The position numbers were made by a program, and so were the translations under genes. DNA of 45,221 nucleotides, the filler included, from Jimgerdemannia flammicorona (lineage: Eukaryota): NCBI GenBank assembly GCA_003990765.1. It is 2 parts of 2 records of this genome, joined end to end, with 100 filler letters (N's around TTAATTAATTAA, not from the genome) between each part and the next. Parts side by side here need not be neighbours in the genome. Positions count along the whole stretch, not along the records: positions 22,665 to 45,221 come from RBNJ01001249.1; 1 more part is not named here. One strand, 5' to 3'. This document shows, piece after piece, positions 3,211-45,221 of this stretch (positions are counted from its first letter, which is position 1; the number at the start of each line of letters is the position of its first letter). The notes beneath the pieces were generated by a model that was not told the origin of the DNA, did no database searches, and worked only from the letters and a program-made list of their open reading frames with translations.

Positions 3211-3618
3211 CTACATGACTGTCTCCCAATGATGTCTCCTTACTTTATCAAAGTCGGTAGAGGTTACTCCTTGCAGGTGGGCTAATGCTGATTCATCTTC
3301 TCGAAATAGCTTGTGGATCCTTTTGGCGATGGTGATCTGTGAGTAGGAGAGTTGGCACTCTGCAATCCAGTCTTCTTTGGTCTTTACTGGATCCTGGTTG
3401 AGCACCTGTCCAAGCTTGAAGTACTCTTGGAACTCTGCCCGATGTTGGTAGGCACTAAAATGTGAGATCTGAGAGAGATGAGTCTGCACAATACTCTGAA
3501 TACTATCATAACATTTCTCTATAGTCAGAGGTTTGGTGGTGCACCATTGTCTTTCAATAGCCCTTTGTGCAGCACTAGTGATCTTGAGTGCTGTTGCAGT
3601 GTTCTGGTTATTGGCCAT
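3211..3618 (-). CDS. E1 accessory ORF (135 aa; perhaps ~153 aa if the TAG is a mutated CAG), unknown function
   Basis: Open ORF between pol and the PPT. Its ATG (3618-3616) overlaps the last pol codons (pol TAA 3610-3608). It shares the QEY..G..L / AK.I...FR / L..V...DF pattern with the LTR ORF of E2. Confidence 0.72.
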   Translation of the reverse strand: MANNQNTATALKITSAAQRAIERQWCTTKPLTIEKCYDSIQSIVQTHLSQISHFSAYQHRAEFQEYFKLGQVLNQDPVKTKEDWIAECQLSYSQITIAKRIHKLFREDESALAHLQGVTSTDFDKVRRHHWETVM

Positions 3619-14960: not shown

Positions 14961-14980
14961 ACTTGGTGCCCATTGGCTGG
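14961..14980 (+). promoter_or_regulatory. E2 primer-binding site
   Basis: ACTTGGTGCCCATTGGCTGG, one mismatch to the E1 PBS. Confidence 0.75.
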
Positions 14981-15016
14981 TGATTCAAGATGAATCCCTC
15001 ACTTTCAAGCTAAAAA

Positions 15017-18000: not shown

Positions 18001-20298
18001 ACTGTCATCACCAAGAAGGATAGGCAGCCCTTACCAAATATTCAAGAAATCCTTACCACTCTTAGAAGTGAAGCCAAATACTACACCACCTTGGATCTGT
18101 TCTCAGACTTCTATCAGATTGGTCTACTCAAGATGCTAGTGAGAAATCAGCCTTCATCATACCTGATGCCACCTATATCTATCTGCAAATGCCATTTGGA
18201 ATATGCAATACCCCAGTAAGTTTTCAGCAAATGATGAACAGAGTCTTTAGCAATGAGATTGGAAAATAGCTCTTTGTCTATATTGATGATGTGATCATCT
18301 TCAGCAATACTGCATGGGAATATATCAATCACATACAGCTAGCCCTCAAGAAGCTCAAGTAGTATGGCCTCTACATCAAGCCCAAGAAATACAAGTTTGC
18401 AGCTCAAGAAATTGCCTATCTAGGACACCTCATCAACCAGACTGGAATCCACACAGACCCCATGAAGATTGAGGCTGTTGCAGCCTACCCAAGACCCAGA
18501 ACAACTACAGAAGTCCATGCCTTCCTTGGACTAGCCAGCTACTACAGAAGGTTCATCAAAGGATACTCCAATATTGCAGTACCCATCTACAAGCTACTGA
18601 AGAAGGAAACCAAATTTGAATGGACCAAAGAGCACTAAGAAACCTTCAATGAACTCAAGATCAGATTGACCCAAGCACCTATCCTCAGAAGACCAGACTG
18701 GAACCTAGAATTCATCCTGTAGACAGACATGAGTGCTATAGGACTTAGAGCAGTCCTAGCTCAGAAGAAAGATGGATATGAATATGTCATCTCCTATATA
18801 AGCCGAGGTATCTATGGAGCAGAACAGAACTATGAGTCATACAAGCTTGAATACTTAACAGTAGTTTGGACAGTAGATAAGTTCCATTACTATCTAATCA
18901 GGAAACACTTCACCATTCAAACAGACCACTCTGCTCTTGTCTGGCTATTCCACACTCTGAACCCCAAAGAAATATATATCAGATGGATCTACAGGCTGCA
19001 AGAGTATGACTGTACTGTCAAGCACTGCTCAGGAAGAACCAATACCAATGCTGATGCACTCTCAAGGACACCCTGAAACACCCCCAATAAGACCATTCAA
19101 CATGAATAAGGAGCTATACTATGAATTAATCAGCTACCTTGGGCAGCAAAAGATGCCTAACCACCTTAAACCCTGGACAATCACCATCATCAACTGGACT
19201 TGGAAACAGTTTGAACTAAACAACACTATACTCAGAAAAGGAGGAAAGCTAGTAATATCCAAATACAAGAAGTATCAAGTAATGAAGAAAGTACATGAGC
19301 AAGGATACCTAGAAGGAATCAATACATATGACAAGGCAAGAAGAACCATGTAGTGGCTCAAGATGGAAGAAGACCTGCATCAATTTGTCAAAGGGTGTGA
19401 CAAGTGCCAAAAACAGAAACAAGATCAATAAGACCAGGCACCCAGGTCATCAATAATTGAGCCTATTCTCTTCCACTACATCACAATGGATATCATTGGG
19501 CCACTACCAGTAACACTATCAGGAAACCACTATATTATAGTTATTGTAGACCTCTTCACCAAATGGATAGAGGCAGGAGCATTATAAGAAACCAATGCCC
19601 TCTCTATAGCTGACTTCCTGAACTGAGAAATCATCTGCTGCTACAAGACACCAAAGCAAATCTCAACAGACTGCAGCACAGAATTTATCAATGGATTCCA
19701 TGAGATAATGTATCAGAAATACAAGATCCAGCACATCAAGACCACTATATACCACCCTCAAGGAAATGGACAGACAGAGAGAACCAACAAGACTCTCAAG
19801 AACATTCTAGCAAAGATCTCAGAGACATATGAGAATTGGGATAACTATATTCCAACTGCCCTCTCTGTCCTATGAGATATACAGTTACAGAGCACACACT
19901 TTACCCCAAGGAAGCTGCTTTTTGGAGAAGAAGATTCTGATGGAACCTCAGCCACAAATCTAGACCTAACTTAGAGATGAGTTGATGTAGAAATCCAGAG
20001 ACTACACCAAATTAGGAAGAAGGCTGAAGATTAAAACATCAAGTCACAAGTGCTGACAAGGAAGAATGTGGAAAAGAATCACAAGACCCTAGAATCTATC
20101 CAAATTAGAGAAAAGGTTCTACTATATTGAAATATGGTAGAAGCCTCATAATCATGAAAACTGGAGCCCAAATGGGAAGGACCCTTCTATATGTAAGATA
20201 TCAAGAGAACTATCTTCTGGCTTAGAAAAATCTCAGGGACCATACTGCCTACCATAGTACATAGGAACAGACTCAAGAAGTACCACAAACCTATATAA
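15017..20298 (+). pseudogene. E2 gag-pol polyprotein (Gag, zinc knuckle, PR, dUTPase, RT, RNase H, IN)
   Basis: YFRCREEGHYVKNC; IIDTGA; GVIDPDYTGEI/GFGSTG; SPWASPIVL, YIDD; QTDHSAL, NADALSR; KWEGPF; TAA at 20296-20298. Gag (15199) and RT (17497) ORF pieces are in the same frame. Confidence 0.93.
17173..17589 (+). other. dUTPase domain within E2 pol
   Basis: LKVKKFHPEAKIP..GIDL..KTRSS..GVIDPDYTGEI..RIGQ..REQGFGSTG. Confidence 0.93.
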
Positions 20299-20323
20299 GA
20301 GAAGCAAAATGTGATGACTGCCC

Positions 20324-20662
20324 ATGAGGTTCTAGTCTACAAATTGTAACAGCATATTCTGTAACCAGCAGGCTATCTGTCTAGACCATTCTCTAAGGGA
20401 TACAGTACTGGCAACTACTCATCTGTGAGACTTTTGAAGTCAGAGGAGTTCAAACCATCAACTGATTAGTCAAGATCAGAATCAGGCTCTTGCTCTATAT
20501 GAAGAGAGCAACCCTTCACCATCATGCCAAAATACAAAGAGAAGACACCAGCCCATAAATACCACTTTTCGACCCCTTGCCAGAGGTTATAGGATCAGCA
20601 AATTTTTCAGGACTGGACTAATGAATAAGGATGCTCAAGAAGATCCTTATTCAGGAGAAAGA
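20324..20662 (+). pseudogene. Possible decayed extra ORF between E2 pol and the 3' LTR
   Basis: 113 codons from ATG 20324 (MRF*STNCNSIFCNQQAICLDH...). Its three stops (TAG, TGA, TGA) all revert by T>C. Confidence 0.35.
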
Positions 20663-22129
20663 TGTAACGGTGACCTCAGAATGATGACATCAGCACAGGA
20701 GACAGTCTTTTCTTACAAGCTACCAGATCGGAGCACAAGAAGATTATATAGCATATGAGATGAGCAATGATGACCCACTGTGAGTCATTGTGACCAAAGT
20801 GCAAGCATCCTGAGAAATATAAAAGAAGAATCAAGGAACCCTAGTAACAGCAATCAATAAGACCCACCAATCCCAAAATAGCTCAAAGACTTACTATAAA
20901 CAAAATGCCTGCTGCTCACCAAACCTCAAGGTCAAGAAACCACCAAGGTATCTCAGTTGAAAAAAGGATGTTCTAAGACATCAGAAGAGCCATGAGGACC
21001 TGCTCAAGAAGAACTCCTAGTGTCAACCTAGGTACTAGTGACCCTTATTACTATATTCTCTACTGCTGTGAAATGGAAACAAGGATCACTATTGCCACTG
21101 AATGCCTCCAAATGTGACAGGAGTATGAAATAGGAAACCTCCTCTACTGGGAGTTCCCACAGGCTAGTACTTAAGAGCTACAAGATGCCACTCTTATGGA
21201 TATATATGAAATGAGGACAGCTAAGAAGATCCATCAGATCTTCAGGTATGCACCATAGTTGATCCCCAACTTGGAGTATGTTAGAGTCTCAGATTTCAGA
21301 GATCTGTCATCCTGCCATATCAATGTACTAGAAGCCAGAGTGGCTACAGAAGCCCAGTCCACTATCACTCTCAATAGTGATGAAGTAGAAGACTTCTGGC
21401 ATCCTATCCTCTAGGACAACCCAGACCAATTCCTACAAGGATTGATCTCAGTATTCAAAGGCCCAAGTATCTAGGTTAGACCTCTCCAAGACCCCACATT
21501 TGTTTCCTATTTTGTGGAAGAGAACCTCATAGACTGGAGAGCTCCAGATCTCCTTATTCTCTCTGTCACCAAACATGATGATGTCATTGATGATGACATC
21601 ATCCCATGCAACATCAAAGTATATGAAAATGATGAATTCACAGACCTCATCTTCTTTGAAGATATCCTGACCTCTGATGATAAGGATGAAGCCCCCATGG
21701 TCCTGAACTTTCTGCTCTAAGTTCTTTGTTATACTGAATAATGCTAGTACTGGTATTCTGATGTAATACTGAATTATACCAATATCCTGAACCTGTACAA
21801 CCATCAGTATCGACCCTGGAACTTAGTAGTTTTAGTTATTGGAATTTATATTTAGCTTTATATCTTAGTAACCATTGAATTATATTTTGTATAAATACCC
21901 CTCTTATTTCCTCTGAAATAAAGTCAGTTCTATCCAGTTTACTTATACACTTCCTTACAAGCAATCTAAGAGATAACAAGAAAGTTTAAAGATAAGAAGT
22001 TTGAGGACTATAAGACCTTAGAAAGGCACTCTAATAAGAACTTACTTATAAAAAACTTGGGTTAGTCTAAGAGATATACCTTGAAGAGAATCTGGTATAT
22101 TTGAAGGACTCAGTGACTACTATGTGACA
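20663..22129 (+). repeat. E2 3' LTR (1467 bp)
   Basis: TGTAACGGTGACC...TATGTGACA, preceded by the PPT TATTCAGGAGAAAGA. Confidence 0.96.
20905..21720 (+). pseudogene. LTR-encoded accessory ORF, copy 3 (271 aa)
   Basis: ATG 20905 to TAA 21720 in one frame (816 nt). Internal stops are transition-derived. Confidence 0.8.
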
Positions 22130-22664: not shown

Positions 22665-22729
22665 ATAGTCACTTAGACTCTTCCTTTATTACACCCCTCT
22701 ATTCTATATAAGTACAGTGAACCCACCCC

Positions 22730-25700
22730 CTATCCAATCCCCCTAGGGGGGCCCCTCCCCCCTACTTCTTCTTGATGAAACACTACTCTATCAAAAACAA
22801 TCCCCACTCACCCACTACTCTGTTCACAGATCTCTTCCACCAGATAGTGACATTGTCCACTCTGGGAACTCCAACCAACCCACCACCCAGCCAGCAAATC
22901 TCCCATCAACCACTCTCATTTTAACAACTTCTCTTGTATATCCATCTACTGCCTCTTCTCAAAAACAAAGAGCCAATGTCCAGCCAGCCCTACCTATATA
23001 GCTAAAACCCACTCTACAGTGAGCATCCATTACTCACACCACCTACTAACTGAGATTTCAAATCCTCCCAGTGACCTCTCTCTCCATCTGGCCTCCTCTC
23101 TACACTCAACCAGTCCCCTACTGCTATCCAAAAGTCCCCCAGAATCTCACACTCTCTTAGCCAATGTTCTGGCATCTGTATAAGACCTCCAACTTGCCCT
23201 ACATTATAATACTCCTCACAATCTAATCAACCACCATCCACTAGATATCCAGTATGAAATTCAATATGATATTCCTCTGCAGCATCTGCCACTACACCAC
23301 CCAGAACTTGGGAGGAAGCCACCTCTATACCTCAGCACTCTATGACTAGACTCCTGTCCAGTCCCACTCCTCATCTATCCTCACTACCTGCCAAATACTT
23401 GGCTATAAATCCTGACCAAGTCCCTGCTGATACTCCACTCCTTTACAAATATCAAACTCAGTAAGTAGAATACCCCCTAGAAGCAGTCTGTCCCATTGCC
23501 ATATAGCTGGACCTCACAGTATCTCTCCCTCATTGCTTCACCAGCACAGGTCTATTCAGTGTGCTCCATCCACCATCTCCCACCAGAAGCCCTTATACCA
23601 TGCCATCAGCTTCCATCCAGACTCACCAGAGATAGCAAATCTCCCAAAGACTCTTGAGAGGAGAATCTCATCTCTCACACCTTCTGCATCAGTGGCACCC
23701 AGCTCTCTCTCTGTAATTCAACAGCCCTTTTTAACCACCAAGCTCACAGGCAATGCAGTCTCTTAGGAAAATCCACTAGGCCTAGCTCTTCCTGAACTAC
23801 CAGTGTTGCAAGAGTGTCCCAACTGATCTGGGACCACCTCTCTGCCCAAATCCAATCTTTAGCCAGTTTCATCAGTCTTTTCACCACTCAAGCTAGAAAG
23901 TTCAAATAGTAAGCAACATACCACAGCTTGGGGAACTAGTAGACATTCAGGATTGATACCCAGCCTACTAGGGAGATATAATGACCTCCCCAACCTCTAA
24001 GAGCCTCTCTCCAAATAGCCACTCTCCTCTTCCACCACTCTCTTGGTAAGACTGAACCATATACAGAGAGAAAGATGTCCAAATACCTCACTGCCTCTCC
24101 TGTAGAGACAATTGTTCCAATGATATTCCCTCCCACCAGCCTATTCCCCAGCACCATTGTCTCACACTTATGCTAGTTGAGTTTCACCCCAGAGTATACC
24201 TCATACCATTCCACTGTCTCCTTAAGTACCTCAACATCTACCACTGAGCCAAGTCCAACTACTATATTATCTGCAAAGGCTCCCCACCTTCCACACCACA
24301 CTATATACAGAGAGCTCTGCTACCTTCTGTCATATCCTATCCATTAGAGGTTCTAATGAAAGAGCATAGAGGATAGGAGACAATGGATCCCCTTAAGGAA
24401 CTTCTCTTCCCAAGGAGAATGCTAGATCCCAGTAATCATTATACATCAGTACTGCCCTACTCCCCTTCAACATATTCAACATAGAAGCTCAAAATCTTGG
24501 GAGAATACCAATTCTATCTAGCACCTTACTCAGCCACACCTGCTGAATGCAGTCATAGGTCTTTTTCTGATCCAAAAAGACCAGTCTTCCATTCAATTCA
24601 CAAGCTTGTACTCCTTCAATAATGCCATAAACCCAGGCAGTCCTATCTCTGATAAGCCTGCCTCTAATAAAGCCCCACTGCTCCTTACCCAGCACCTGTT
24701 GGGCAACCTTCTGTAGCCTTACAACAATCACCTTAGTCACTATCTTCCTGTCTATATCTAGGAGCATGATTAGTCTCCAGTTCTTCCAATCCTCCCTCCT
24801 TCTCTTGTCTTTATACAACAAGACCACCAGCCCTAAGTCCTGCTCTCTAACCCACCTACCATTCAGAAGAATATGGTCACAGAGGGCTGCTATTTCTCCT
24901 AACATTCCAGGGACCTCTGCCATCTTCTTTCAGAAGTCTCAAGGTAACTCATCCTCTCCTGGTGCTATCCTAAGCTTAGTTGCTGCCAGAACTCTCTGAA
25001 CCTCTTTCTTTTAGACTGGTAGTATCAAGTCTCCAAGACCCTCTATCTGTAGCAGTTCCCACTTCTCCAGCATGTTGCCAATTACCTTCTCATCTGTACC
25101 CCCTTCCTTCTCACTTCACAGACCCCTCTACCTTTTCTTCAGTTCTGTTGTATGTCATATACTATTTCCCCCTCAGTATCAAGGACCCCATCTCAATGAT
25201 GTCATACCCTCCTAGCTTAGAGGAGTCTTGACAAGTACCTCATAGGCTACTCTCCCTCCTCAAGCCCCTACCACCTTAGTCTAGCAGCCATTTCTTTCAA
25301 ATGAATCTCCTCCTCCTCTCTCAATATCTGTTATAGCTCCACTATCTCCAATTTTGCTCACTCCAACCTCCAATCATCCACCTCTTCAGAAGAAATCAAA
25401 TTAGCCCATTCCATCTGCAATCTAATCAGCCTATTAGAAGCACACCTTACTCTCTTCCTTCTCTGCCTCCCAGTCTCTCTATCAGCTCTTCCTAAATAAA
25501 CCCTTGCTGCCTCCTTCAATCTCATCCACTGGACATCCACAGATGAGCTCTCATATATCTAGCTAGTAATTTTCACCTGTATGACCTCTACCTATGAATC
25601 TCACAACACCTTCTCAGCCAGCAGAGAGGAGTTAAGGTACTAATATCTGAGTCTATCTCTACTCCCCCTAAACTGCTCCTGCCCTAATAGCCCCTAGTGA

Positions 25701-26365
25701 TTAGACCATAGGTACTACTCTACCTCTAGAGTTCTCTAAATATCTACATCCCAGCATTCAGCTGTCAGAATCCAATCAATTCTCATACTCAGTCTATTCA
25801 CCCAGTATATATAGACTTTCTTTTCACCCCATCATATTCTGCTCTATCCCCTAAGGAGCTAAGGTTCTCTACCTCCTCCTATACATCCAGACTACCACTC
25901 CTCCTGCCTGCACTCCTTCCTCCCTCAGTTCTATCTAACTGTGGATTCTACACTATATTAAAGTCACCTTCCAGAACATCTACTCCTTCCTCTAAGAGAA
26001 CTTCCTCCTCCAAAAAATCTCTAATCTACCCAATCCACTCACCCCTAGCCATAGGGCAGTAGTAGGAGCCAACCCTCACTGGTTCTTACTCAGGTCAATA
26101 CCATTCTCCCCAGACCAAACAGTTACCCCAGCTCCTGACTCCACCCAAATCTCCTCTCCCCCTCCTCACCAGAATTGCCACTTTGCTAATCCAAGCAGTA
26201 GCTTCTCTCCATTCTCTTGTCCACTTTACCCAATTCTCTTCATCCTTATACTGTACATTCTGCATCAGCCTCCAATCTCTTAAGCCAGGTAAAAATGTTC
26301 TTATGCTGTCCAGGTTCCCTTAACCCATTCACATTCAGAGAGAAAATGTTAGTTATACTGTTCAT
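22730..26365 (-). pseudogene. LINE ORF2 (APE endonuclease, RT, C-terminal CCHC region)
   Basis: MNSITNIFSLNVNGL; DFN; SNH (SDH); KNWRLIMLL; DQKKTYD; GDPLSP; FADN; ends PPRGIG*. Confidence 0.9.
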
Positions 26366-26396
26366 AAGAAATAATATTAAATATAAGTCTCATCCT

Positions 26397-28308
26397 CTAT
26401 AAGTCTGCATTCAACTCCTCCTATACTAAGTCTAAGTTATATTCAGCAGCTAGTACCTTCTCTTCTGCTGCCCATGCCTCCAGCCTAACCAGAAGTTCAG
26501 CTATCTCTCTATTCTCTTTTTTCTCAAAGTCCTCACAATACTCCAGACATACCTTCTGCCAGAGTTGCAAACCATGATGCTCTGCCCAACAGTAGACAGC
26601 TTGCTCACCAGCAATGACTGCCAGCTCAGTCTCTCTTTTCTTATCAATCTCATAACCCTCTTCTTCTAGGAAAATTGCAAGTATCTCTGCCTTCAGTACC
26701 TCCACTCCATCTCTATACAGAATCTGTATCCAATACTCCTCACTCATCACTTGTAGGTCCACTTCCCCCAACCCCTCAGCTATAAAGTTATCTATTATCT
26801 TGCTCATCCACAGCAGGTTTCCCACCTCCTTCCCTCCAGGCATCTCTGGCCTTCCTGTATCCAGCATTATAGTATCTGCCCCTACACTGGCAGTCTCATC
26901 CCATCTCTCTTCTGGGACATCCACCAGCTCATCCTTGCCAACCACCATTATCTGTCCTCCTTTTGTTATATATATCAGAAACCCCAAAGTGTACCCACTG
27001 AGTGCCCCTCATCAGCTCATCCTCTGCTACCTGACCCCTCACAGCTGGACTCTGTCTGACCAGTGGGGGAGTATTATCCATAACTGGTTCCCAGACTTTG
27101 AACATACCATCAGCAAAAGAGTCCTTATGAGGTATCTTCCCAGCCCATTCCAGGCTCTTCTTCATATGTATCTCCTTCTCCCTTACTAGCCCAGACACTC
27201 ACCTCTATATCCTCAGACTTCTCAGTGCTCCTAGCCTTTATCTTTGTCTCTCCTTCCATGCTTGCTAGCAGCTCTCTCTGCCTCCAGTACTCTTGAGCCC
27301 TCTCTCACTACCTCTTGTCAGTGCAAATACATATGCTTCCCTTCAATAATCTCCAGATGTGTCAACTTCACATACAACTTTCAGACCTTTATCCTCTGCT
27401 CAACAGCACCACTCAACTCCTCTAGAGCCTCCAACAAGTTCTCCTCCTCCTCTTCACTCCCTTTTACCCTTGATACCTTACAGACAAAAGCCCCCCACAT
27501 CAACACCAAAGGCCAGTCACTCATCTTCCCCATGGCCTCTCTCCCAGTCAGTCTAATTCTGACATTCACATCATCTATCCTGAAGATAGTTCCCTCCTAT
27601 ATCTGGAAACTAATATCAACCACATTGCCATACTCTGCTATCACCTTCTCCACCCTCCTCCTAGTCTCATCCTTTGTTACTGTAGGCACTCTCAAGTACC
27701 ACACCATAGAGACCACCATCTCTCCTATGGTCACTTCAGACTTCAAAGCCTCCTCCAATGGGCCCACCTCCTCGAAGCCTACCTCCACCCCTTCCAACTC
27801 CTTCAGAAACTTCACTGAGGCTGCTCTAGCCACCTGCTCTGATATAAGCCCCAGAACCATCCTCATCATCACTACCAAGCCCCTGAAATATAAGATCACT
27901 ATGAACTCTGAGATTGACTTCTTGAGTAATAGTACTACCACTAGCTCTGTCATACCATCAGCTAGGTCTCTCTTCCACTTTGGGCCCATCTGCCCAGTTC
28001 TCTCATCAATAGTTATATCTGGATTTTTTTTCCAGATTCCCAGTCATACTGCCATCAGCAGTCCTGCCTCTACTCCTACTAGCTACTCCACTAGCTCTAC
28101 CTCTCACTAGCTAAGGTCTAGCACTTCCAGCTTCTCCAACCTTCTGCTTCCCCTTCCCTCCTGCCTGCCTACTCTGAGTTTCTACTGGCCAACCTCCAGC
28201 CCACAGCATATCTGCAAAGCTCCTCCCCTTCTGCTCTCTGGCCTCACCACCAGTGCTGCTTTCACTGTCTAAGCTGCCCTGCCCACTCAAGCCACTGAAA
28301 GACCCCAT
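26397..28308 (-). pseudogene. LINE ORF1
   Basis: Homologous to 39788-41731. RRM-like segment VPTVTK...EYGNVVDISFQI. Confidence 0.8.
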
Positions 28309-28459
28309 CCCAAGCCTATACCCTTATCTGACATTCTGCTAGTTAAAGGCCCCAGGTCTATCCAACCCAGTCACACATTTGCTTACTTGCTGGTTACTAT
28401 TACCTTAGTACCTTTCTCCAATAAATAACTTGAAAGTGTGTTGTAAAAGTGTGTGTAAC

Positions 28460-31400
28460 ATAAATTATAGTAGAGAAAGCCTGTGACCTCAGTGGTATAC
28501 TATCCCAAATCAAATAAGTCTACTCTCTGAACCAAAGAAGAAGATTCTCAAAATATAAAAAAAGCAATAAGAAGAAAAGTACAAAGTATCAAATAAGAGA
28601 CTTACTACAAAATATCTACTATCTACTAAATAGTAAGATCAAAAAGTCATCTAGATCCATCAGTTCAAGAATAGATATTTACTAATATTAAGAGAGTTAT
28701 GAGATTGTATATAAGAAAGACCCCAAGTCTGAACTTCTATATAAGAGATCTCTACTACTATACTCTCAACTGCTGTGAAATAGAGATAAGAATCACTACT
28801 GCTACTGAGTATCTTTAGATATAACAAGGATATGAAAAGATATATCATCTCTACTAAGAATTTTTATAAGCCAGCTCTCAAGAAATTGTAGATGCTACTT
28901 GTATAGACAGATATAAACAGAAATTAGCCAAAAGAGTTCATCAGATATTTAGATATATACTCTGGGCTATTCCTAATCTGAAATATATTAAAGTCTCTGA
29001 TATTTAAAAACTAATAAGCCACTGTACAGATCACTCTGAAGAAATAGTTGCAGAAAAAGCTCAATCTACTATTACAGTTAAGAGTAAGGAGATTTAAGAC
29101 CTTTGGAAAGGATAATTCAAATCAATTTATCTATAGTTTGATTGTATTATTTCAAGGCCCTCTCTTGAGAGTCTACTTTTTCCAGAATTTCACAGATATT
29201 TCCTACTTCATAGATAACAATACTATTGAATAGAGACCTTAAGAGTAGAATAACTATATACCTTTTAATAATATCAATGACATCATCTCTCAAAATAACT
29301 TAGAGAATAATAGTGACTTACTTATTTTGCTAGAAGATGATATTAACTACTTTTCTCACTTCCAGAACCTTCTCACTGACTTCAGCACAATTGTGAAGAA
29401 TGCAAAAAATGATTTGGTCAGACCCCCTGAAGAGAAGAAGGATGAGAATGATATAATCTCAGTTATGCTAAATTTTAAGTTAAATGAGAATAGCTCTATT
29501 AGTCAAATTGAGTAAGTTAGTTAGTTAGATAAATAGTAATTGAGTATTAACTAGCTCAATTTATCATAAATATAAAATTAGCCTTATTCAGTTAGTTAGT
29601 CACCTGAATTCCAAAACTATACTAATTAGTATCTTCTAGTAATTATGATAACTAATTATCTAGTCTTATATATAGTCTAAAAACTATTAAATATCCTCTA
29701 ATCTGTAGTGAATAAACCTCAGTCAATTAGTTTGTAATATTAACTTAAGTTTTAAAAGATAAGAAAGTTGAGTGTAAGAACTTTGAAAAAAGACTCCAAG
29801 AGTTGAAGAATTACTCTTACTACCATAAAACTCAAGATATAAGATTAAGACTATTTCAAGATATAAGTCAGTTAGTTAAAATTACTGTAAAATTAGATAT
29901 AAGTCTCAGGAAATCTAGCCAAGGATATCAGAATTGTCAACTTGCCTAGAAACTCAAAAATAATATATAAACTAAATAGCCAGTTATGTGATCAATGACT
30001 TAAGATATATGAACTTCAACTTGACATAAATCCAAATAAATTAAATAGTAGTTGATATGAATATTGAGTCAGAAATATGGTTAAGAAATAAATAGGAGAT
30101 AGTATATAAATAATTAAGAGATACATTGAGCCATATAGAAGCAATAAGAGATATAAATCATGTACTACATTTTAGAGACTTGACTGAGAAAGTTTTCTAA
30201 AGACTTAATTATTTGGCTCAAGAACTCAATAACTATCTATAGTAGAGAATTTAGGAGAAACTAGCCAGCAGTAAGACCAGGGCCAACAATAGCCCACTTT
30301 AGAAAAAGAAGCTCATACTATTATCAGAACAGCCCTCACTCTGTTTAGAACCAGTAGCCAGAAAACTGAATTAGAAAAAAGAAGTGATACAGATTATAGT
30401 TTGATCTTAAAGGAAAGAAAATAACTCAGAGGACAACCTGAGTCTATCTAGATCCAAGACCCAGAACATGAAGAAGATTTTCCTGAAGAATACTAGATCC
30501 TAATCTATAGAAGAGATTTGGGCAGAAGTGACTATATTACTACTGTCATCACTTAAGCTACTTTACTAGATTAAGTATATTTTGAAATATCTGAAGGAGA
30601 AAAAGACTACTATTTCTACCTTTTAGAATAAGAGAAAGATGATAATTGAAAAAGTCAACCAGATTATCCAAGAGATGAATTCAACCTTTATCACTACTTA
30701 GACAGTAATATAGACCCTTGGTAAGATGAACAGAACTCCACTGCTTCACAACAGCAAGGGGCAGATAAACTGAAAATTAGCTATATTAGTTCTATTTTAA
30801 TTACCAGAACCTCAGTACTCTGGTTCTTTATATTCCAATACTATCTATAAGAGACAAGAAGCTTTAAATCTCTCAGTACCTCAGTACTTAGTGACCACTA
30901 TCACCTAATTAGAGAACCACTATCATCAAGAACCCTTATCCCAGCTTTAATTAGAAGGGTCAGACTCCTTATACTCTCACCAAGATACTATCTTTTGTCA
31001 GTACTAGTAGTTCATCAAGTACCTCTACTATCTCCAGGTTATCAAGAAACTCTACCCCAGAATCAGACTCAGATAGTGAAGATGAATCAAACATAAGCTA
31101 TCTTTAGAAATTCCATAGTACAGACAGTAAATATATCAAGGAATTCTTTAGAGAAATTGAAGTACAAGTAGTAGCTAAGTAGTGAGATGCTCAGAGAAAG
31201 CTCAGAATCATGGAATCACTCCTGAAAGATCCTGTTCTACAGAAGTACAACTAAGTAAAGCAAGTTGGAGGAGATATCTATAAAGTAGAACATATTAACA
31301 ACATTTGAGCAAATAGAGACCATATAGATAGATATCATATTTATAAGACCTGGCTCTATACTTAGTTCAATAGTCTTAAGCATTAATAGAAAATATAAGA

Positions 31401-33005
31401 AACATGAGTCAAGCTGCCAATAAAACTCTAAAAGGCTTCTACTATCAGATTCAAGCTCAGATAATTAAGACAAACTTATAACCTACAGTCTAACTAGCTC
31501 TGATCTCAACTACTTTCCTCAATGGAATATTCTCAGAGCTTCAAAGATAAGTCATTAGGATAGACTATTGAAGTATTGAGCAACAAGATGCTAGAGCACA
31601 AGAATGCTGGGAAGCAAACTATAGACTACTCCAATAAGTATAGAATATCAAGAACCAGCTCAAGCTAAAACTTCAAGGACTTATAGAATAACTATAGAAT
31701 AAGAGAATGCCTACTTGAGAGCCCAGTTGGTTAGCTATAAGATCAGACCCCTACTCCCAATTCTGACTCAATATAGATAACAACAGCTGCCTCTATTAAG
31801 ACCTAGCCATTACAGTTACTTAGTTAAAGAACTAAGAGAGAAGACAATAAGATTATTGTCAAGATAATAGATCAGATTACTGACAGTAAGATAACAGGAG
31901 TTTTACTCAGACTATATCAGTTATAACTGCAGATTTACTAGTGATAGGTTCCTATATTCCAACTTACTTCAACTATAGAAACTAATATCATATTCAGAGG
32001 TTTTACCTAAAGAAACAAACTCTATTCAATGATGGAAATGTCAATCTCATTTAAGTGAATGAAGAGATCTGAGAAATAGAAGAAGAAGCTATCTGGTTTC
32101 ATAGTCAAGAGGATACCTATCTATACTACAAAGCCTTTTCCTTTAAGATAACTTAGAATATAGTACCTATATAGGCCAGAGAATGAGGAAGACCTCTAAG
32201 GTCCCCACTTTCACCATAATTGTTAGTAATTATATCTATAGGCAAACATCCAAGATATGGTCATTTCTTCTTAGATACTTCTCAGAAAAAGGACAAGAGA
32301 GTCAGAAGAGATACCTCTGAACCAGAAGCTGGTCTATTAAGAGTATTAAGAAGTATCTCTCTATCTGATCTTATAGAAGACAAGTACATATATAGAGTCC
32401 TCAGCTGATAAAATACCTAATAAAAATGAGAGGATTCATTATAAGAGATCTAGATACTAAAGAAGCAGTAAGCTTTATAAAGTAGCATCACTTTGGAAAT
32501 ACCTCTGTACTCAGAATACAGGTCTTACAGTCAAACAAGTCCTTAAGAATATACTAGAACTTAGGTGAAAATTCCTCAAGAAAGCTAAAGAAGATACTAA
32601 AAAAATCTCTATTTAAAGATCACACACACTAGAGCCTAGTACTATTTATATAGTTTATGAATATTAGTACTAGGAATATCAATTTATAAGGCTAGCTAAT
32701 GGAAAAGTACATAGTGAAAATACCAGAATCCTTATTGATACTAGAGTAGTAGTTTATATTATTATCCAGTAAATGCTAGAAAGGATCAGATAGAGAATTA
32801 ATGAAGAAACTAAAGCAAGAGTTATTATGGCAGATAGATCAGCATCTACCCCCCTTAAACTAGTTAGAGATATATCTATTTAAGTTAGAAAGGTCTACTT
32901 TAATATATCCTAAGCTATTATAACTCTATCAATCTTCTATAATCTAATTTTAGAAACTGACTAATTGTACCAAGTTGGAGCCAATGTAGACATATCAAGA
33001 AACAA
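28460..33005 (+). mobile_element. E3: heavily decayed, 3'-truncated gypsy element (presumed LTR with accessory ORF, gag, protease); boundaries approximate
   Basis: Accessory-ORF homologue at ~28540-29515; gag relic KEFFREIEVQVVAK**DAQRKLRIMESLLKD (~31140); protease relic ILIDTRVVV...VIMADRS...LILETD*L (~32730-32970). Confidence 0.7.
28540..29515 (+). pseudogene. Diverged homologue of the LTR accessory ORF
   Basis: ASSQEIVDAT..KLAKRVHQIFRYILWAIPNLKYIKVSD and NQFIYSLIVLFQGP..YFID...VMLNF align with ASIQELQDAT..TAKKIYQIFRHAP*LLPNLEYVRVSD and DQFLQGLISVFQGP..YFVE...MILNF. Confidence 0.8.
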
Positions 33006-33040
33006 CTTCTGGTCTTTATCTTTTATAGATAAAAACACAA

Positions 33041-33826
33041 GGTGGAGATGAGGTAGAGTGTCAGTAGGGTCTTGGCCAGGACCTTTAGTCAAGCGGTTGG
33101 CAGGCAGTTGGGATCAGTGAGGAGTGGAACTGGGCAGGTATCTGGTCTTGGAGTGCTGAGGTGCGGTGGTGGCTTCCCCCCAAGTTCTGGGTGGTATGGT
33201 GGCAAATGCTGCGGAGGAATGTCATGCTGAATTTCTGTACTGGGCATCTGGTAGATGGTGGCTGTTTTGATTGTAAGGAGTGTTACAATGTAGGACAAGC
33301 TGGGGGTTTGGTGCAGATGCCAGAACATTGGCTGGGAGAGTGTGAGGTTTTGGGGGACCTTTGGGTTGAAATAGAGAATAGACTGGGTATGGAGCGTAGG
33401 CCAGCAGGTGAAGGGAATTGCTGGGAGGACTTGAGATCTAGGCTGGTGGGGGGGGGTGGGTGATAGTTGGCTCACTATTGGGTAGGTGTTAGCAATTTGG
33501 GTGGGATTGGCGGGATATTGGCTATTTGTATTTGAGGAGGGGTGGTAGATAAGTCTGCTGGAGAAAGTTTTAAGGTGGGAGGAGTTGTTGGGGGATCTGA
33601 TGACTGGATGGTGGGTAGGTTGGAGTCCTTCAGAAGACCAGTGGTGAGGTTTGGTGGTGAAGATATGTGAACAGAGTGGTGGGAGGGTGGGGATTATATT
33701 CGATAAAGTAGTGTTTCGTCGAGAAGAGGTAGGGGAGAGGGGCCCCCCTAGGGGGATTGGATAGGGGGTGGGTTTACTGTACTTATATAAGATAGATGGG
33801 CATAATAAAGGAAGAGTCCAAGTGAC

Positions 33827-33883
<57 letters not shown>
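33041..33883 (+). mobile_element. 5'-truncated LINE copy with intact poly(A) tail
   Basis: Matches 44650-45221 and 22665-23450. C-terminal CFDCKEC...EHWLGEC motif, AATAAA at 33804, pure A54 at 33830-33883. Confidence 0.93.
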
Positions 33884-38509: not shown

Positions 38510-39636
38510 GGCAGGTTGCCCTAAATGGTGGTGAAGATATCTTGATATTTGTTGAGAAGTTCTACTAGTTGTTGCCATTGTCAAGATATCAATTCTTCTC
38601 CAATGTTAGTAGAAGGCTTCACTGTCTCCTGGGTCACAGAGGGGCTCTTTTCTTTCTTCTGGGTCCTTTTCCTGTTTCTCAATAAGTTAAGCTCATAGAC
38701 TTCTCTGTGAATTCAGTTGAGGAAGAGCACTAGATATCCTATAATAGTTCCTTTTGGCAAGATAATACTTTCCCAACTCTGGTTTGTTACTTAGGAGTGC
38801 ACTGGATTCATCTTGTCAGAGAATGTATATCCTTCTATGTCCAGATTCCAAATATCTTTATTAGGTTCAAAGAAGAGATTCCTGGGGTCAGATAATGCAT
38901 AGATTTTGAAGATAGTCTGCTCTCTAGGCTCCAGGATGAGATTCATGTGTAGTTTGACTGGTTGGTAATATACTTGCTAAGGGACATTCTTCTTGAGGTA
39001 GTTGATCTGAAGGAGATATACTTCCTTATTGTCTGAGCTTCCAAATCCTTCAGCTTTCCTTGTTCATTCAGTCAGTTTGAGGACTTCTTATAATTGTGGA
39101 GACTTGACTTCTATGAAGACTGCTTGGACAATCTTCTGTCCTCTAATAATTCAGTACTATTCTGTACTACTGTTATGCAGGATGATCTTGATTTCACCTG
39201 TGTATTCTAGGTCTATAATTTCTTCTTCTACAGTTATTCCCTATCTGGCAAGTCCAGACTTTGAGGTCAGTTGGATATAAGTTTCTTAGGGTGACTGTAC
39301 GGCTAGTCTGGTTCTGAACATCAATTTCTTCCAGATTTGATAGATTTATCCTCCAGACTGTAGAGGTCATACCCTATATCTTCTTGGTGGGCTTTGGTCA
39401 GAGGTTGGGCCTTGGGATGTAGCAGAGCATACTGGGTAACATCTTTGCTGAGTTCAGGCTGTCCTTGGGCCGAAGCTCCACTAGCAGGAAGTCTCCAGGC
39501 TCTGAGATTGAGGTGCAGCCATCTGGCTCCAGTAGAGGGATCTCAGAGATAATTGATTCTTCTATTTTCTATAGGGTCTAGGCCTTCCATGAATTTGGTG
39601 GCATCTTCTACCCATCTTTCTCTACTACAATTCACA
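38510..39636 (-). pseudogene. Gypsy pol fragment: dUTPase, spacer and start of RT
   Basis: LLHPKAQPLTKAHQEDIGYDL..EIIDLEYTGEIKIILHN..RKAEGFGSS (~39030-39430); QQLVELLNKYQDIF (~38540). Confidence 0.8.
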
Positions 39637-39787
39637 TTACACACACTTTAATAACACACTTTCAAGTTGTTTATTGGAGAAAGATATTAAGACAATATTG
39701 ACCAGCAAGTAAGCCAATATACATACTAGGTCAGGCAGACCTAGGGCCTTCAACTGGCAGTATGTCAGGAGGGGGTATAGGCTGGAG

Positions 39788-41731
39788 ATGGGGTCTTTTG
39801 GTGGCTCAGGTGGGCAGGGCAGCTTTGGTAGTGGAAGCGGCACTGGTGGGGGGGCTGGAGGGCAGTAGGGAAGGAGCTTTGTGGACATGCTGAGGACAGG
39901 AGGTTGGCCAGTGGGAGATCACAGTGGACAGTCAGGAGGGAAGGAGAAGAAGAAGGTTGGGAATGCTGGAGGAGCTGGGCCTTCATTGGTGGGAGGTAGA
40001 GGAAGTGGAGTAGCTGCTGGGGGTAGTGGCAGGACTGCTGATGGTTGCATAATGGCAAATTAGGAGGAAAAAAAAAGAGATGTGATGGCTGATGGCCAGG
40101 GGGGGCAGGGGTTTCTGATGCGGAAGGGGGATCTGGCAGATGGTGTAATGGGACTAGTAGTGGCCCCATTACTCAAGAAGTCAATTTCAGAGTTCACCGC
40201 TACTTTGTGCTTCCAGGGCTTAGTGGTGATGGCGAGGATAGTCCTGGGGCTTATCTCGAAGCAGGTGGCTGGGGCAGCCTTGGTGAAGTTTTTGAAGGAT
40301 CTGGAGGGGGTCAAGGTGGGCTTTGAGGAGGCAGGCCCACTGGATGAGGCCCTGAAGACAAGAGTAGTAGTTGGGGAGGTGGTGGTCCCCATGGTGTGGT
40401 GCTTGCAATGGGACCCCAGGGTGGTGCAGTTTCTGGTAAGGGGGGTGCCCACAGTGACTAAGGAGGAGACTAGGAAGAGGGTGGAGGAGGTGACAGTTGA
40501 GTATGGTGATGTGGTGGACATTAGCTTTCAGGTGTGGGAGGGGACAACTATCAGGACAGGCAATGTCAATATCAGGATTTGGCTGACAGGCAAGGAGGCC
40601 ACAGGGAAGATGAGAGACTGGCCTTCAGTGCTGATGTGGGGGGCCTTCATCTGTAAGGTGTCAAGGGTGAAGGGGAGTGAAGAGGAGGAGGAGAACTTGT
40701 TGGAGGCTCTGGAGGAGTTGAGTGGAGCTGTGGAGAGGAGGGCAAAGGCCTGGAAGATGTATAAGGAGTTGATGCATCTGGAGGTTATGGATGGGAAGTA
40801 TGTCTGCACCAACAGGAAGCAGTGGGAGCAGGCACAGGGGCGCAGGAGGCAGAGGGAGTTGTTGGCAAGTATGACAGGAGGGGGGAAGATGAAGTTGGCT
40901 GGAGCTGTGTAGTCTAGAGGCATTGAAGCCAGTGTCTGGGCTGGTAAGGGAGGAGAGAAGGTGGAGATGAATGCAGAAGAGGCTGGGAAGATGCTGGGCA
41001 AGGATCCATATGCTGATGGTACCTTTGAAGTTTGGGAGCAGGAGTTGGATGGCACCTCCCCCCTACTTATCAGGAGGGGCTCGGTTGGGAAGAGAGGAGC
41101 AGTGGAAGATGTGTTGATGCAGGGGGCCCAGTGAGTTCACTTTGGGGTCCCAGATGTGGTGGAAGGGGGCCAGGTGGTGGCAGTTAGTGAGGATGAGCTA
41201 GTGGATGTCCCAGAGGAGGAGTGGGATGAGGCTGCCAGTGTAGGAGCTGACACTATGATGATGGATGCAGGGTGGCCTGGGACTCCTGAGGGGAAGGAGG
41301 TGGAGAACATACTGTGGATGAGCAAGGTGATGGATAACCTGGCAGCTGAGGCACTGGGAGAAGTGGACCTATGTATAATGCCTGAGGAGCATTGGGCATG
41401 GATTCTGTGAGGTGATGGAGTGGTGGAGGCACTGAAGGTGGAAATTCTTATAATCTTCCTGGAAGAGGAGGGATATGAGGTTGATGAGGTGAGGAAGGCA
41501 GAGCTGGTGGTTGTTGCTGGGGAATGGGCTGCCTATTGTTGGGCTGAGCATCATGGGTTGCAGCTCTGGCAGGAGGCCTGTCTGGAGTGTCATGAGGACT
41601 TTGAGGAGAAAGAGAATGGGGCAATGGTTGAACTTCTGTGAGGGTTGGAGGGGCAGGAAGCTGAGCAGAGGGAACTGGCTGTGGAATATACCTTGGACTT
41701 GGCATGGGAGGACTTGAATGTGGATTTGTAG
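39788..41731 (+). pseudogene. LINE ORF1 (~640 codons)
   Basis: MGSFGGSGGQG...; RRM-like VRGVPTV...EYGDVVDISF..RTGNV; acidic C-terminal half. Confidence 0.82.
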
Positions 41732-41762
41732 AGGATGAGTTTGATATATAATAATATTTCTT

Positions 41763-44700
41763 ATGAACAGTACAACTAACATTTTTTCACTTAATGTGAA
41801 TGGGCTGTAGGGTTCTGGGCAGTATAAGAACATTTTTACTTGGCTCAAGGGATTGGAGGCTGATCTCTTTCTACTGCAGGATGTACAGTGTGAGGATGAG
41901 GATAATCAGGTAGAGTGGACTAAGGAATGGGGCAGGGCTATTGCTTGGTTTGGAAAGGTGGTAATTCTGGTAAAGAAGGGTATGGGGGATTTGGGGGGAA
42001 TCAGGGACTGGGGTGATCACTTGGTCTAGGGAGAATGGTATAGGCCAGGGTGGGAATCAGTGAGGGTGGGCTCTTGCTACTGCCCAGCAGTTAGGGGCAA
42101 GAGGATTGCTTAGATCAGAGACCTGCTGGAGGAGGGTATTCTCTTGGAGAAAGATGTCGATGTTCTTGGTGGTGATTTTAACATAGTTCAGGATCTATGA
42201 CTGGATAGAACTGATGGAGGGAGGAATGCCAGTGGTAGGAGTGGTGGTCTGGATGTATGGGAGGAGGTGGAAAACCTTAGCTCCTTAGGGGATATGGGCC
42301 AAACATAGTGGGGTGACACCAGGGTCTACACCCTTTGGGTGAATGGATTAGGCATGAGAATTGACTGGATTTTGATAGCTGAATATTGGGGTGCTGATGT
42401 TTGGAAGACATTGGAGGTGGTGTGGTGCCCATGGTCTGACCACTGGGGACTGTTAGGGCAAGAGCAGTTTGGGAGGAGAAGGGATGGACCCAGACATTGG
42501 TGCCTTAACTCCTCCCTGCTGGCTGAGAAGGGGTTGTAGGACTCATGGGCAGAGGATGTTCAGGAGAAGATTCCTTTCTGGAGGCATGAGGGTCTGTCTG
42601 TGGATGTCTGTTAGATGAGATTGAAAGAGACTGTAAAGGCCTATTGGAGAGGAGCTGGTAGAGAGGCTGGGAGACAGAGAAGGAAGCAAATACAGTGTAC
42701 TTCTAATAGGCTGATGAGGTTGCAGAAGGAATGGGCTGATTTACTTGACTCTGATGAGGTGAAGGATTGGCAGTTTGAGCAGGCTAGATTGGAGATAGTG
42801 GAACCACAGCAGGTGTTGCGAGAGGAGGAGGAGACTCATATGTGAGGGATGGCTGCCAGGCTATGGTGGCAGGGGTTGGAGGAGAGAGAGGGGCCCACTA
42901 GGTACTTGACTAGGCTCCTTAAAGCTAGGAGGAAGCGACATCAGTGGGATGGGGTCTTTGATACTGAGGGGGAGTTGGTACATAGCACACAACAGATCTT
43001 AGGGATATTGAAGGAGAGATGGCAGGGTCTGTGGAGTGAGAAAGAAGGGGGTGCTGATGCGGAGGTGATTGAAGATACACTGGAGGAGTGGGAACTGCCG
43101 CAGATAGAGGGCCTAGGTGACTTGATATTATTAGTCCAAGAGGAGGAGATCCAGAGGGTCCTTGTGGCTACTAAGCTTGGGACTGTACTCAGGGAGGATG
43201 CGTTACCTTGGGACTTCTGGAAGAAGATGGCAAAGATCCCTGAAATGCTAGGAGAGATGGCTGCCCTCTGTGACCATATTCTTCTGTATGGCGAGTGGGT
43301 TGGAGAGCAGGACTTGGGGTTGGTGGCCTTATTATACAAAGATAAGGGCAGGCAAGAGGACTGAAAGAATTGGAAACCAATCATGCTTTTGGATATGGAC
43401 CAGAAGTTGGTGACAAAGTGATTGTTGCAAGGCTGTAGAAGGTTGCTCAACAGGTATTGGGTGAGGAGCAGTGGGGTTTTGTGGGAGGTAGGCTTATTAG
43501 AGATGAGACTGCCTGGGTGCATGGCATCATTGAAGGGGCTCAGACCTGTGAGCTAGATGGTAGGCTGGTCTTTTTGGATCAGGAGAAGGCCTATGATCGT
43601 GTCCAGTGGGTATGGCTGGGTAAGGTACTGGACAGAATTGGTGTCCCACTGCAGTTTCGGGCCTCTATGTTGAGTCTGTTAGAGGGCAGTAGGGTGGTGC
43701 TGATGTGCAATGGTCACAGGGGTTTGGCATTCCCCTTGGGGAGAGGAGTTCCTCAAGGAGACCCACTGTCCCTTATTCTGTATGTCCTTTCACTTGAACC
43801 TTTGATGGATAGGATCTGTCCGAAGGTGGCTGGGCTCTCAGTGTATAGTGTGGTGTGGAAGGTGGGGGCCTTTGCAGATGATATGGTAGTTGGGCTTGGA
43901 TCAGTAGCAGATGTCAAGGTGCTTACAGATACAGTGGAATGGTATGAGGCACACTCTGGGGCAAAACTCAACTGGCATAAGTGTGAGATATTGGTGTTGG
44001 AGAATGGGTTGGTGGGAGGGGACATCATTAGAACAATTGTTCCCACAGGAGAGGTGGTGTGGTATCTCAGTATCTTCCTTTCTATATATAGATCAGTCTT
44101 GCCACAGGTGTGGTGGGAGAGAAAGGTGGTCAATTGGGGAGAGACTCTGAGAGGTTGAGGGGGGCATCACATCTCCCTGGCAGAGCATATCACTTGGACT
44201 TTCCAGCCTAGATGGTGAAGAGGCTGATGAAGCTGGCTTGGGATTGGATTTGGGCAGGAAGAAGGTCGCAGATTAGTTGGGATACCCTTGGGGAGCCAGT
44301 GGTTAGGGGAGGCCTGGGTCTTGTAGATTTCCCTAGAAGGCTACACTGTCTGTGAGCTTGGTGGTTGAAAAGGGCAGTTGAACTAAGAGGAGGAGGTTGG
44401 GTTCTGCTGATGCAGAAGGTGTGGGAGATGAGGTTCTCACCCTGGGGATCCTCAGGAGACTTGCTCTCTCTGGTGGAGCTGAATGGAAGCCGACAGCTAT
44501 GGTATAAGGGCTTCTGGTGGGGGGTGGTGGATGGAGTGCACTGGATAGGCCTGCACTGGTGAGGCAATGAGGGAGAGGAGGTGCAGGGCCCTACTATATG
44601 GTGATGGAACCAACTGTTACTAGGGGGGGTTCCACTTGCAGAGTTTGATTTTGGTGATGGAGTGGAGTGTCAGTGGAGACTTGGCCAGGATCTTTGGCCA

Positions 44701-45221
44701 AGTAGTTGGCAGGTGGTAGGGATTGGTGAGGAGTGGGACTGGGTGGGAATCTGGGCCTGGAGTGCTGAGGTACAGCGGTGGCTTCCTTCCAAGTTCTGGG
44801 TGGTATGGTGGCAAATGCTGTGAAGGAATATTATGCTGAATTTCTGTGCTGGGCATCTGGTGGCTGGTGGCTGACTGGATTGTGAGGAGTGTTATAATGT
44901 AGGACAAGCTGGAGGCTGTGTGCAGATGCCAGAACATTGGCTGGGAGAATGCAAGATGTTGGGGGTCTTTTGGATAGCTATAGGATGCAGGCTGGGTGTA
45001 GAAAGGAGGCTGGATGGTGAGCAAGATCACTGGGAGGATTTGAAATCTAGGCTAGTGAGAGGAGTTGGCAACAGGTGGCTCACTGTAGGGTGGGTGATTG
45101 CGGTTTGGGTAGAGTTGGCTGGACATTGGCTATTTGTTTTTGAGGAAGGGTGACAGACAGAGTTGCAGGAGAAGTTAGTGAGGTGGGAGGATTTGATGGG
45201 TGATCTTCTTACTGGGTGGTG
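41763..45221 (+). pseudogene. LINE ORF2 (APE-RT)
   Basis: IFSLNVNGL, LLQD, GGDFN, RIDWIL, WSDH; DQEKAYDRV, GVPQGDPLS, FADD; EHWLGEC. Confidence 0.92.

Follow-up and report, generated by a model that had tools for sequence, protein, structure and literature searches.

The stretch of DNA analyzed here (hereafter, the window; 45,221 nucleotides, filler included) comes from Jimgerdemannia flammicorona (GenBank assembly GCA_003990765.1) and consists of two parts of two records joined by 100 filler letters, with positions 22,665 to 45,221 taken from RBNJ01001249.1. The window is a nest of decayed repeats in which CpG is almost absent. In an earlier note on this DNA, a diverged homologue of an open reading frame (ORF) in the long terminal repeat (LTR) of one retrotransposon, E2, was recognized in a third family, E3, and was read as evidence that the LTR ORF had been a real gene. 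We conclude that what E3 contains is a pseudogene, and that its parent was a genuine accessory gene belonging to Ty3/gypsy retrotransposons that encode a dUTPase. The features of E3 are as follows.

28484–30169, plus strand: 5′ LTR of E3 (Ty3/gypsy), lacking its first 140 bp or so, where a long interspersed nuclear element (LINE) abuts; sister copies share both ends.
28554–28560, plus strand: TATAAAA, putative accessory-gene promoter, 58 bp 5′ of the start-codon position.
28612–29108, plus strand: N-terminal part of the accessory ORF, the conserved helical core; dead, with a mutated start codon and stops.
29109–29515, plus strand: C-terminal part of the accessory ORF past an 11-bp deletion, in another frame, with the DNPDQF..LFQGP segment, an acidic tail, the LNF motif, and a stop at 29513–29515.
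29685–29716, plus strand: the promoter/poly(A) pair usual for an LTR, a TATA box and AATAAA (29711), here degraded and located 3′ of the ORF.
30170–33042, plus strand: E3 internal region, with a degraded primer binding site (PBS), a gag-like segment (31108–31407), and a protease (PR) remnant (32704–33039), cut by a LINE at 33043.

The window copy of E3 has one LTR only, which is truncated, and its ends were defined from other copies. A DNA search in G000, the 231-Mb assembly that includes the window, yielded 48 E3 matches (from 40 scored of 837 candidates); the sister copies extend from about 140 bp 5′ of 28484 to the position matching 30169. Six distinct full-length E3 LTRs were identified (four 5′, one 3′, and one solo LTR with a 4-bp target-site duplication, TSD; L005), and the full-length LTR measures 1863 bp and runs from TG to CA (contig C14). 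The segment described in the earlier note is therefore confirmed to be part of an LTR. In contig C1868, PR, dUTPase, and reverse transcriptase/RNase H (RT/RH) lie in this order between two E3 LTRs, which are 80.5% identical over the 524 bp present. Integrase (IN) was not detected in C1868, which is a hypermutated E3 copy, and no accessory homologue was found in E3’s own 3′ internal region, where integrase also went undetected. Nine E3 copies have a purine-ending 3′ flank in common. The TATAAATA of the LTR promoter/poly(A) pair is present in 22 of 24 E3 copies, and the TATAAATA...AATAAA pair also lies 3′ of the ORF in E2 (21890/21918), with the same pair in a metagenome locus (L171) and in a further family, F4. 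The ORF is therefore placed in the U3 region of the LTR, the putative U3/R border being set from these motifs, and the parent gene of the E3 copy, about 300 codons long, is contained entirely in U3. The earlier note had also placed the ORF upstream of gag. The position holds, since protease homology follows at 32704–33039 and dUTPase and RT follow in the sister copy, but Pfam names no gag after the E3 PBS, and the label rests on position and on a motif that we take to be typical of gag. For the segment itself (31108–31407), G000 contains at least 150 relatives, and many of these lie in long open frames. Between the LTR and this segment, about 0.9 kb (30170–31100) is about 80% conserved in sister copies and may represent a leader or a further ORF.

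The E3 copy of the accessory gene (28612–29515) has lost its start codon, contains 10 stops, and carries one frameshift deletion of 11 bp. The gene start had been given in the earlier note as 28540, whereas the (mutated) ATG position is 28612; the TATAAAA reported at about 28554 was found exactly there, and TATAAA is kept at this site in 25 of 27 E3 copies. All of the amino acid motifs named in the note are present at 28870–29465, but they do not form a single frame: ASSQEIVDAT (28870), AKRVHQIFR (28927), and PNLKYIKVSD (28972) lie in one frame, and QFIYSLIVLFQGP (29123), ISYFID (29198), and MLNF (29465) lie in the next. The 11-bp deletion that splits them is private to the window copy; the sequence at this site is retained in 28 of 29 other E3 copies, and the remaining one has a different deletion. 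Stop-free E3-type proteins of 323 amino acids occur in metagenomes (P0018, P0020), and L171 has a TATA-ORF-TATA-AATAAA layout like that of E3. The N-terminal part of the E3 ORF is 64% identical to the stop-free P0020 over 150 amino acids, and at eight of the 10 stops only transitions that are usual for this genome separate the window copy from a natural stop-free relative.

The codon tests compared E3 with the following features of E2.

13494–22129, plus strand: E2 (Ty3/gypsy), with 1467-bp LTRs that are 89% identical and PR-dUTPase-RT-IN homology.
13736–14551, plus strand: ORF of the E2 5′ LTR (LTR, 13494–14960).
20905–21720, plus strand: ORF of the E2 3′ LTR, 271 codons with 5 internal stops (LTR, 20663–22129).

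Over 243 codons, the E3 window copy and the ORF of the E2 3′ LTR differ at 99, 75, and 142 first, second, and third codon positions, respectively (chi-square p = 1.8e-5), and their amino acid identity is 42%, compared with 28.5 ± 2.1% in 2000 permutations of the substitutions; both values come from a protein-guided codon alignment, which inflates them. In a DNA-only alignment, the counts were 76/62/113 (p = 2.5e-4). An even spread over codon positions is thus excluded, and the purifying selection proposed for the LTR ORF in the earlier note is borne out. The five other frames of this pair gave amino acid identities of 21–39%, and a neutral control, the E2 5′ LTR versus the E2 3′ LTR, gave 36/30/35. 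The DNA similarity to the E2 LTR is greater than had been thought: a 502-bp ungapped block (E2 20900–21401, E3 28607–29108) is 61% identical, so that the codon test is needed because little can be concluded from the amino acid identity by itself. Past this block, the alignment continues across the 11-bp deletion for a further 136 bp, and beyond the ORF only pieces of ≤ 47 bp align.

Of the 156 differences between the two E2 LTRs, 148 are transitions, which fall mainly on CpA and CpC, and the spectrum of C-to-T changes is unusual (CpA, 75 of 219; CpC, 27 of 115; CpT, 5 of 220). We based the selection ratios on transversions because hypermutation does not make them. Transversions alone gave a modest signal in the window E3–E2 pair (52/30/48, p = 0.04). 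The ratio of 0-fold to 4-fold transversions was 0.50 over 442 E3 × E2 pairs (17 E3 × 26 E2; range, 0.31–0.80; the pairs are not independent), 0.59 within the E2 copies, 0.42–0.55 among the near-intact ORF copies of three families, and 0.25 between the window E3 copy and L171. Among the E3 copies of the genome it was 1.09, which corresponds to neutral decay, and for the dUTPase/RT of E2 and its relative E1 it was about 0.18. These results indicate that protein-level purifying selection acted in the ancestors of the families, not on the dead window copy, and that the constraint on the accessory ORF is weaker than that on pol (0.42–0.55 versus about 0.18). Furthermore, when E2 LTRs were selected by DNA, 26 of 29 were in frame despite lengths of 803–828 bp and all 29 retained the TAA end, whereas a downstream non-coding stretch kept its frame in 6 of 20. 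Indel lengths were multiples of three in 35 of 68 cases in the ORF versus 9 of 56 outside it (Fisher p = 6e-5); the count of indel events is affected by the splitting of gaps by BLAST, and net frame was used as well. The diverged E3 copy had been put forward as the best evidence in the window for a real gene. It is good evidence, but the stop-free copies and the frame-preserving variation in length are as strong as the codon evidence.

Homologues of the ORF occur in four families, two of which carry it outside the LTR. Those of E1 in the window are the following.

9334–2665, minus strand: E1, a relative of E2, with 460-bp LTRs.
3211–3618, minus strand: short, distant homologue between integrase and the polypurine tract (PPT), outside the 460-bp LTR, with TATAAAA at 3698–3704.

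A stop-free ORF was present in 38 of 142 scored E2-type copies (6960 first-look candidates). The 20 full-length E2 LTRs comprise nine 5′, nine 3′, and two solo LTRs, and one E2-type solo LTR with a 4-bp TSD (L063) carries a stop-free ORF. A profile search of 1.84 billion representatives returned 12 proteins at E ≤ 0.001, all named at most “hypothetical protein,” one of which pointed to a locus (L170) and then to the fourth family, F4, in G000. Five F4 elements with two 811-bp LTRs each contain the full-length ORF once, between integrase and the PPT. In 30 of 35 distinct F4 loci the stop codon of the ORF directly abuts the PPT and the LTR start, and a contig edge ends most of the remaining five; of these 30 loci, 28 are in frame, 12 are stop-free, and 29 have TATAAA 71–76 bp before the ATG. 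The E1-type form (135–153 amino acids) has at least 150 copies, with TATAAA 86 bp 5′ of the ORF in 14 of the 18 copies parsed. The distance from TATAAA to the start codon is therefore 58 bp in E3, 71–76 bp in F4, 86 bp in E1, and 87 bp in E2. The pol order PR-RT-RH-IN was found in E1, E2, and F4. Thus, F4 and E1 have a single-copy internal ORF between pol and the PPT, whereas in E2 and E3 the entire ORF is within the LTR; each round of replication therefore doubles it, and solo LTRs retain it. No E1-type ORF was found between the integrase and the PPT of E2 (best E, 0.35).

Some further observations concern these families. The accessory TATA box of E1 (3698–3704, minus strand) lies within the sequence that encodes integrase, and the final codons of pol overlap with the ATG. 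E1 and E2 have PBS, PPT, and LTR end motifs in common, yet their LTR bodies (460 versus 1467 bp) are unrelated, which amounts to an LTR swap, and the pol frame of E2 seems to continue for about 120 codons beyond the E1 pol stop, to the PPT (20285–20662; L146). The ORF is also present in a third LTR of the E2 type, at 76–1206 on the minus strand, where its longest open piece is 123 amino acids. The dUTPase precedes the protease in F4 (L210, L213, L214, L218, L221) and follows it in E1, E2, and E3. The F4 LTR starts (L172–L209) with a variable array of short GAACGA-like repeats right behind the terminal TGTAATAG.

The encoded protein belongs to a previously undescribed family. The core of the E1-type form (21 aligned sequences) was modeled as an all-helical soluble domain of seven helices, with a predicted local distance difference test score (pLDDT) of 87 and a predicted template modeling score (pTM) of 0.80. 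In this model, the core motifs Y/E-x-G-x-x-L and A-x-R-I-x-x-x-F fall on the long helix and on the helix pair 81–105. The long form consists of the core, a conserved middle segment, and an acidic tail with the LNF end; its net charge is −20 to −34, mostly from the tail. No transmembrane stretch or hydrophobic segment of signal strength was found in four members (maximum 19-residue hydropathy, 0.15–0.91). The core model was compared with known helix-turn-helix domains, and the SopB/VirB DNA-binding domains aligned to it (helices 81–88 and 92–105) with Z 3.2–3.5 and a root-mean-square deviation of 5.0–5.5 over 83–89 residues, which is within background. Candidates from the ESM Atlas were rejected: in one search the best scored 0.86, under the meaningful range, and in another a score of 0.95 to unnamed prokaryotic and viral clusters had no alignment support and is at most a lead.

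The relationships of the ORF differ from those of the elements that carry it. RT identity is 64% between E1 and E2 and 43% between E2 and E3, whereas ORF identity is 58% between E2 and E3 and 27–31%, over < 100 amino acids, between E1 and E2. Similarly, the RT tree joins E1 with E2, and the ORF tree joins E2 with E3 (support, 96/97). In approximately unbiased (AU) tests, which omitted one RT row and eight ORF rows of the trees, E2 + E3 was rejected for RT (p = 0.011) and E1 + E2 was rejected for the ORF (p = 0.026). This disagreement suggests that the cassette was exchanged between lineages.

We compared the gene with known systems, drawing here and below on the available portions of the papers cited. 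The standard exception to non-coding LTRs is a retroviral one, the sag gene of mouse mammary tumor virus (MMTV) (PMC4667437). As in sag, the ORF is in both LTRs, 3′ of the PPT and 5′ of the LTR TATA/poly(A) signals. Sag of MMTV and of related betaretroviruses is likewise a U3 protein gene that occurs in two copies per element and persists in solo LTRs; its coding constraint lets otherwise unalignable LTRs align across lineages, and it has its own promoters (PMC4667437). In contrast, sag lies mostly, not wholly, in U3, and its product is the membrane superantigen of a retrovirus with an envelope (PMC4667437), whereas the E2/E3 gene is fully contained in the LTR of a Ty3/gypsy element that has no env, and its product is predicted to be soluble. 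No Sag homology was found for the protein in Pfam and in PDB sequence and fold searches, and no membrane anchor was found by hydropathy. Plant LTR retrotransposons may carry additional ORFs 3′ of pol and ahead of the 3′ LTR, which are likewise conserved across a family and of unknown function, and the forms in F4 and E1 correspond by position to the sense class of these; gene23 of Grande, which is antisense, has its own promoter and a nuclear product (PMC7264820). Unlike the E2/E3 gene, the plant ORFs are in the internal region and the sense ones are often env-like with transmembrane parts, and none in an LTR is described in the available portion of that source (PMC7264820). No homology between them and the accessory gene was shown. 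Bdelloid rotifer ORF3s, like the present gene, are accessory ORFs of dUTPase-bearing gypsy-like elements that are shared as modules across distant lineages, but they are recognizable enzymes or env/transmembrane proteins, internal, and typically spliced (PMC5408684), whereas the gene of E1–E3 and F4 has no Pfam match and crosses the PPT boundary. VANC of the Arabidopsis VANDAL elements is comparable only in its functional model, in which a transposon accessory protein counters the silencing of its own family; VANDALs are plant DNA transposons, no homology was found, and anti-silencing here is an analogy only (PMC5735166, PMC10398659). ORF0 of rice is located 5′ of gag-pol (PMC3485330). A term search of a survey of fungal LTR elements found neither “accessory” nor “dUTPase” (PMC3248453), and in a literature search that covered few subscription journals no fungal gypsy element was found whose LTR contains an entire conserved protein gene.

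Based on these results, we consider that the ORF is probably a real, self-promoted accessory gene in U3 that serves its element. We have good confidence that the cassette, with its own TATA promoter, would make a short sub-genomic mRNA that ends where the LTR supplies its poly(A) signal. The ORF would come last on the genomic RNA and be badly placed for translation, and the TATA box kept 58–87 bp upstream in four families would most simply drive a short mRNA to the LTR poly(A) site, which points to a separate message. On the whole, it also seems likely that the gene began at an internal 3′ position, became part of U3 once a purine tract 5′ of it was used to prime the plus strand, and was exchanged between lineages by recombination. 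U3 starts wherever the PPT primes, so the use of a purine tract 5′ of the cassette would have moved the cassette into the LTR and doubled it, and solo LTRs such as L063 would have become complete genes. As for function, we tentatively favor a soluble, non-enzymatic regulator that may activate or de-silence the element encoding it, given a host in which repeats are methylated and hypermutated; such a regulator might combine a helical nucleic-acid- or chromatin-binding core with the acidic tail. The picture as a whole is more speculative, and we regard it as rather doubtful: a promoter-plus-gene cassette of a helical family, from gypsy elements that are probably fungal, would have moved across the PPT into U3 and been swapped between distant lineages, so that each LTR, even a solo one, would by itself suffice to express an activator or counter-silencing factor that acts in trans against the host’s methylation and C-to-T hypermutation of repeats.

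Several points weigh against the main explanation, a self-promoted accessory gene with a regulatory function. The sub-genomic transcript is a prediction from sequence. TATAAAA occurs 36 times in the window, compared with 15 expected, so that a single instance is not significant alone, and because the box consists of A/T only, C-to-T decay cannot erase it, which makes its conservation within a family weak evidence. The X1–X3 contigs lie on the LTR, but their RNA origin is a guess and they lack starts and ends, so they are neutral on expression. In the E2 LTRs, an upstream non-coding stretch also kept its length modulo 3 in 22 of 29 cases, and the seven indel events in the ORF core all break the frame. 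DNA binding is a guess from the helix pattern and charge, and the core is not basic (8 K/R and 15 D/E in residues 61–150 of P0020). The full-length E3-type model has a pLDDT of 38.6 and is unusable. Searches of Pfam, PHROGs, and PDB sequences with the accessory protein gave no match, Foldseek against PDB and BFVD gave none at E ≤ 0.001, and the VIA-align fold search gave a best Z of 4.4, with none ≥ 5 (best in a further run, 3.0); a missing fold match does not establish a new fold. The kinship of the E1 form is weak, although it was found repeatedly (BLAST E, 7e-5; profile probability, 83.5%, E 8e-6, 103 columns). With respect to the trees, the AU groups were named only after the trees had been seen, E3 is represented in the RT tree by one hypermutated, long-branch sequence, the base of the long-form ORF clade is unresolved, and the direction of movement is unrooted.

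Two other functions must be weighed against a regulator. A real accessory protein might act after transcription, in the export or packaging of RNA, the assembly of particles, the entry of cDNA into the nucleus, or the control of copy number. All of the coding evidence fits this reading equally, small helical proteins with acidic tails would suit chaperoning, and a nematode LTR element has an accessory protein for RNA export (PMC10309623); the separate promoter and the survival in solo LTRs, however, slightly favor a factor that acts in trans and whose synthesis does not depend on the genomic RNA, and we think this role somewhat unlikely. We consider it less likely still that the protein is directed, without DNA binding, against the host or rival elements, as an RNA-silencing suppressor, an inhibitor of methyltransferase or hypermutation, or an exclusion factor. 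The strong hypermutation of the repeats and the near absence of CpG would suit such a target, as would the constraint below that on pol and the presence of the gene in lineages with RT identities of just 34–45%, but no likeness to known suppressors appeared in the searches run, and most gene-carrying copies are hypermutated themselves. The regulator is favored over these two functions, and nothing in the analysis separates the three.

The remaining alternatives are far less probable. If the gene were functional only in the internal position, the ORF in the LTR would be a passenger or a source of regulatory DNA; the neutral decay of the E3 copies in the genome and the dead window copy agree with this. 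The LTR-borne E2 and E3 forms nevertheless constitute a supported clade with a purifying ratio of 0.42, the ratio between the window copy and L171 is lower still, and the E2 length variants keep the frame, so that we regard this reading as largely refuted and very unlikely. An env-like fusion or membrane protein is suggested by F4 and E1, in which the ORF is in sense orientation and at the 3′ end, as are env-like ORFs (PMC7264820). It is refuted as far as the hydropathy scan reaches, and is highly improbable: the four members scanned contain no segment of the required kind, the protein is acidic, the model is all-helical and soluble, and the TATA box makes spliced expression unnecessary. Finally, the core nucleotide identity of 57–61% and one antisense frame with 39% identity might be ascribed to a conserved DNA or RNA element or to chance after biased mutation. 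This non-coding reading is refuted, with a negligible remaining probability, because the third-position excess persists in the DNA-only alignment, the antisense frame mirrors the codon positions and contains 27 and 10 stops, an Rfam scan of 28400–30400 gave no match, and several families have stop-free copies.

Because both states, the gene before the PPT and the gene in the LTR, are found in one genome, LTR growth by a shift of the PPT and module exchange can be studied directly. Long terminal repeats are ordinarily non-coding, and annotation that treats them so would miss thousands of candidate copies. If the protein does counter silencing, it would represent one of the few known responses of a retrotransposon to a genome defense of fungal type, with a new fold to solve.

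With regard to the surroundings of E3, the element that truncates its LTR is not part of the gene.

22665–28479, minus strand: LINE abutting and truncating the E3 LTR.

This LINE family has three copies in the window (22665–28479, 33043–33829, and 39616–45221), which are 75–79% identical, and two of them bracket E3, one cutting its LTR and the other its protease. No tRNA genes were found in the window. Insertion sites of E2 and E3 are mostly (TA)n-like with 4-bp duplications (L050–L079 and L001–L030), and the flanks of F4 seem less AT-biased. The damage differs strongly by family, E3 being wrecked and F4 retaining many CpG.
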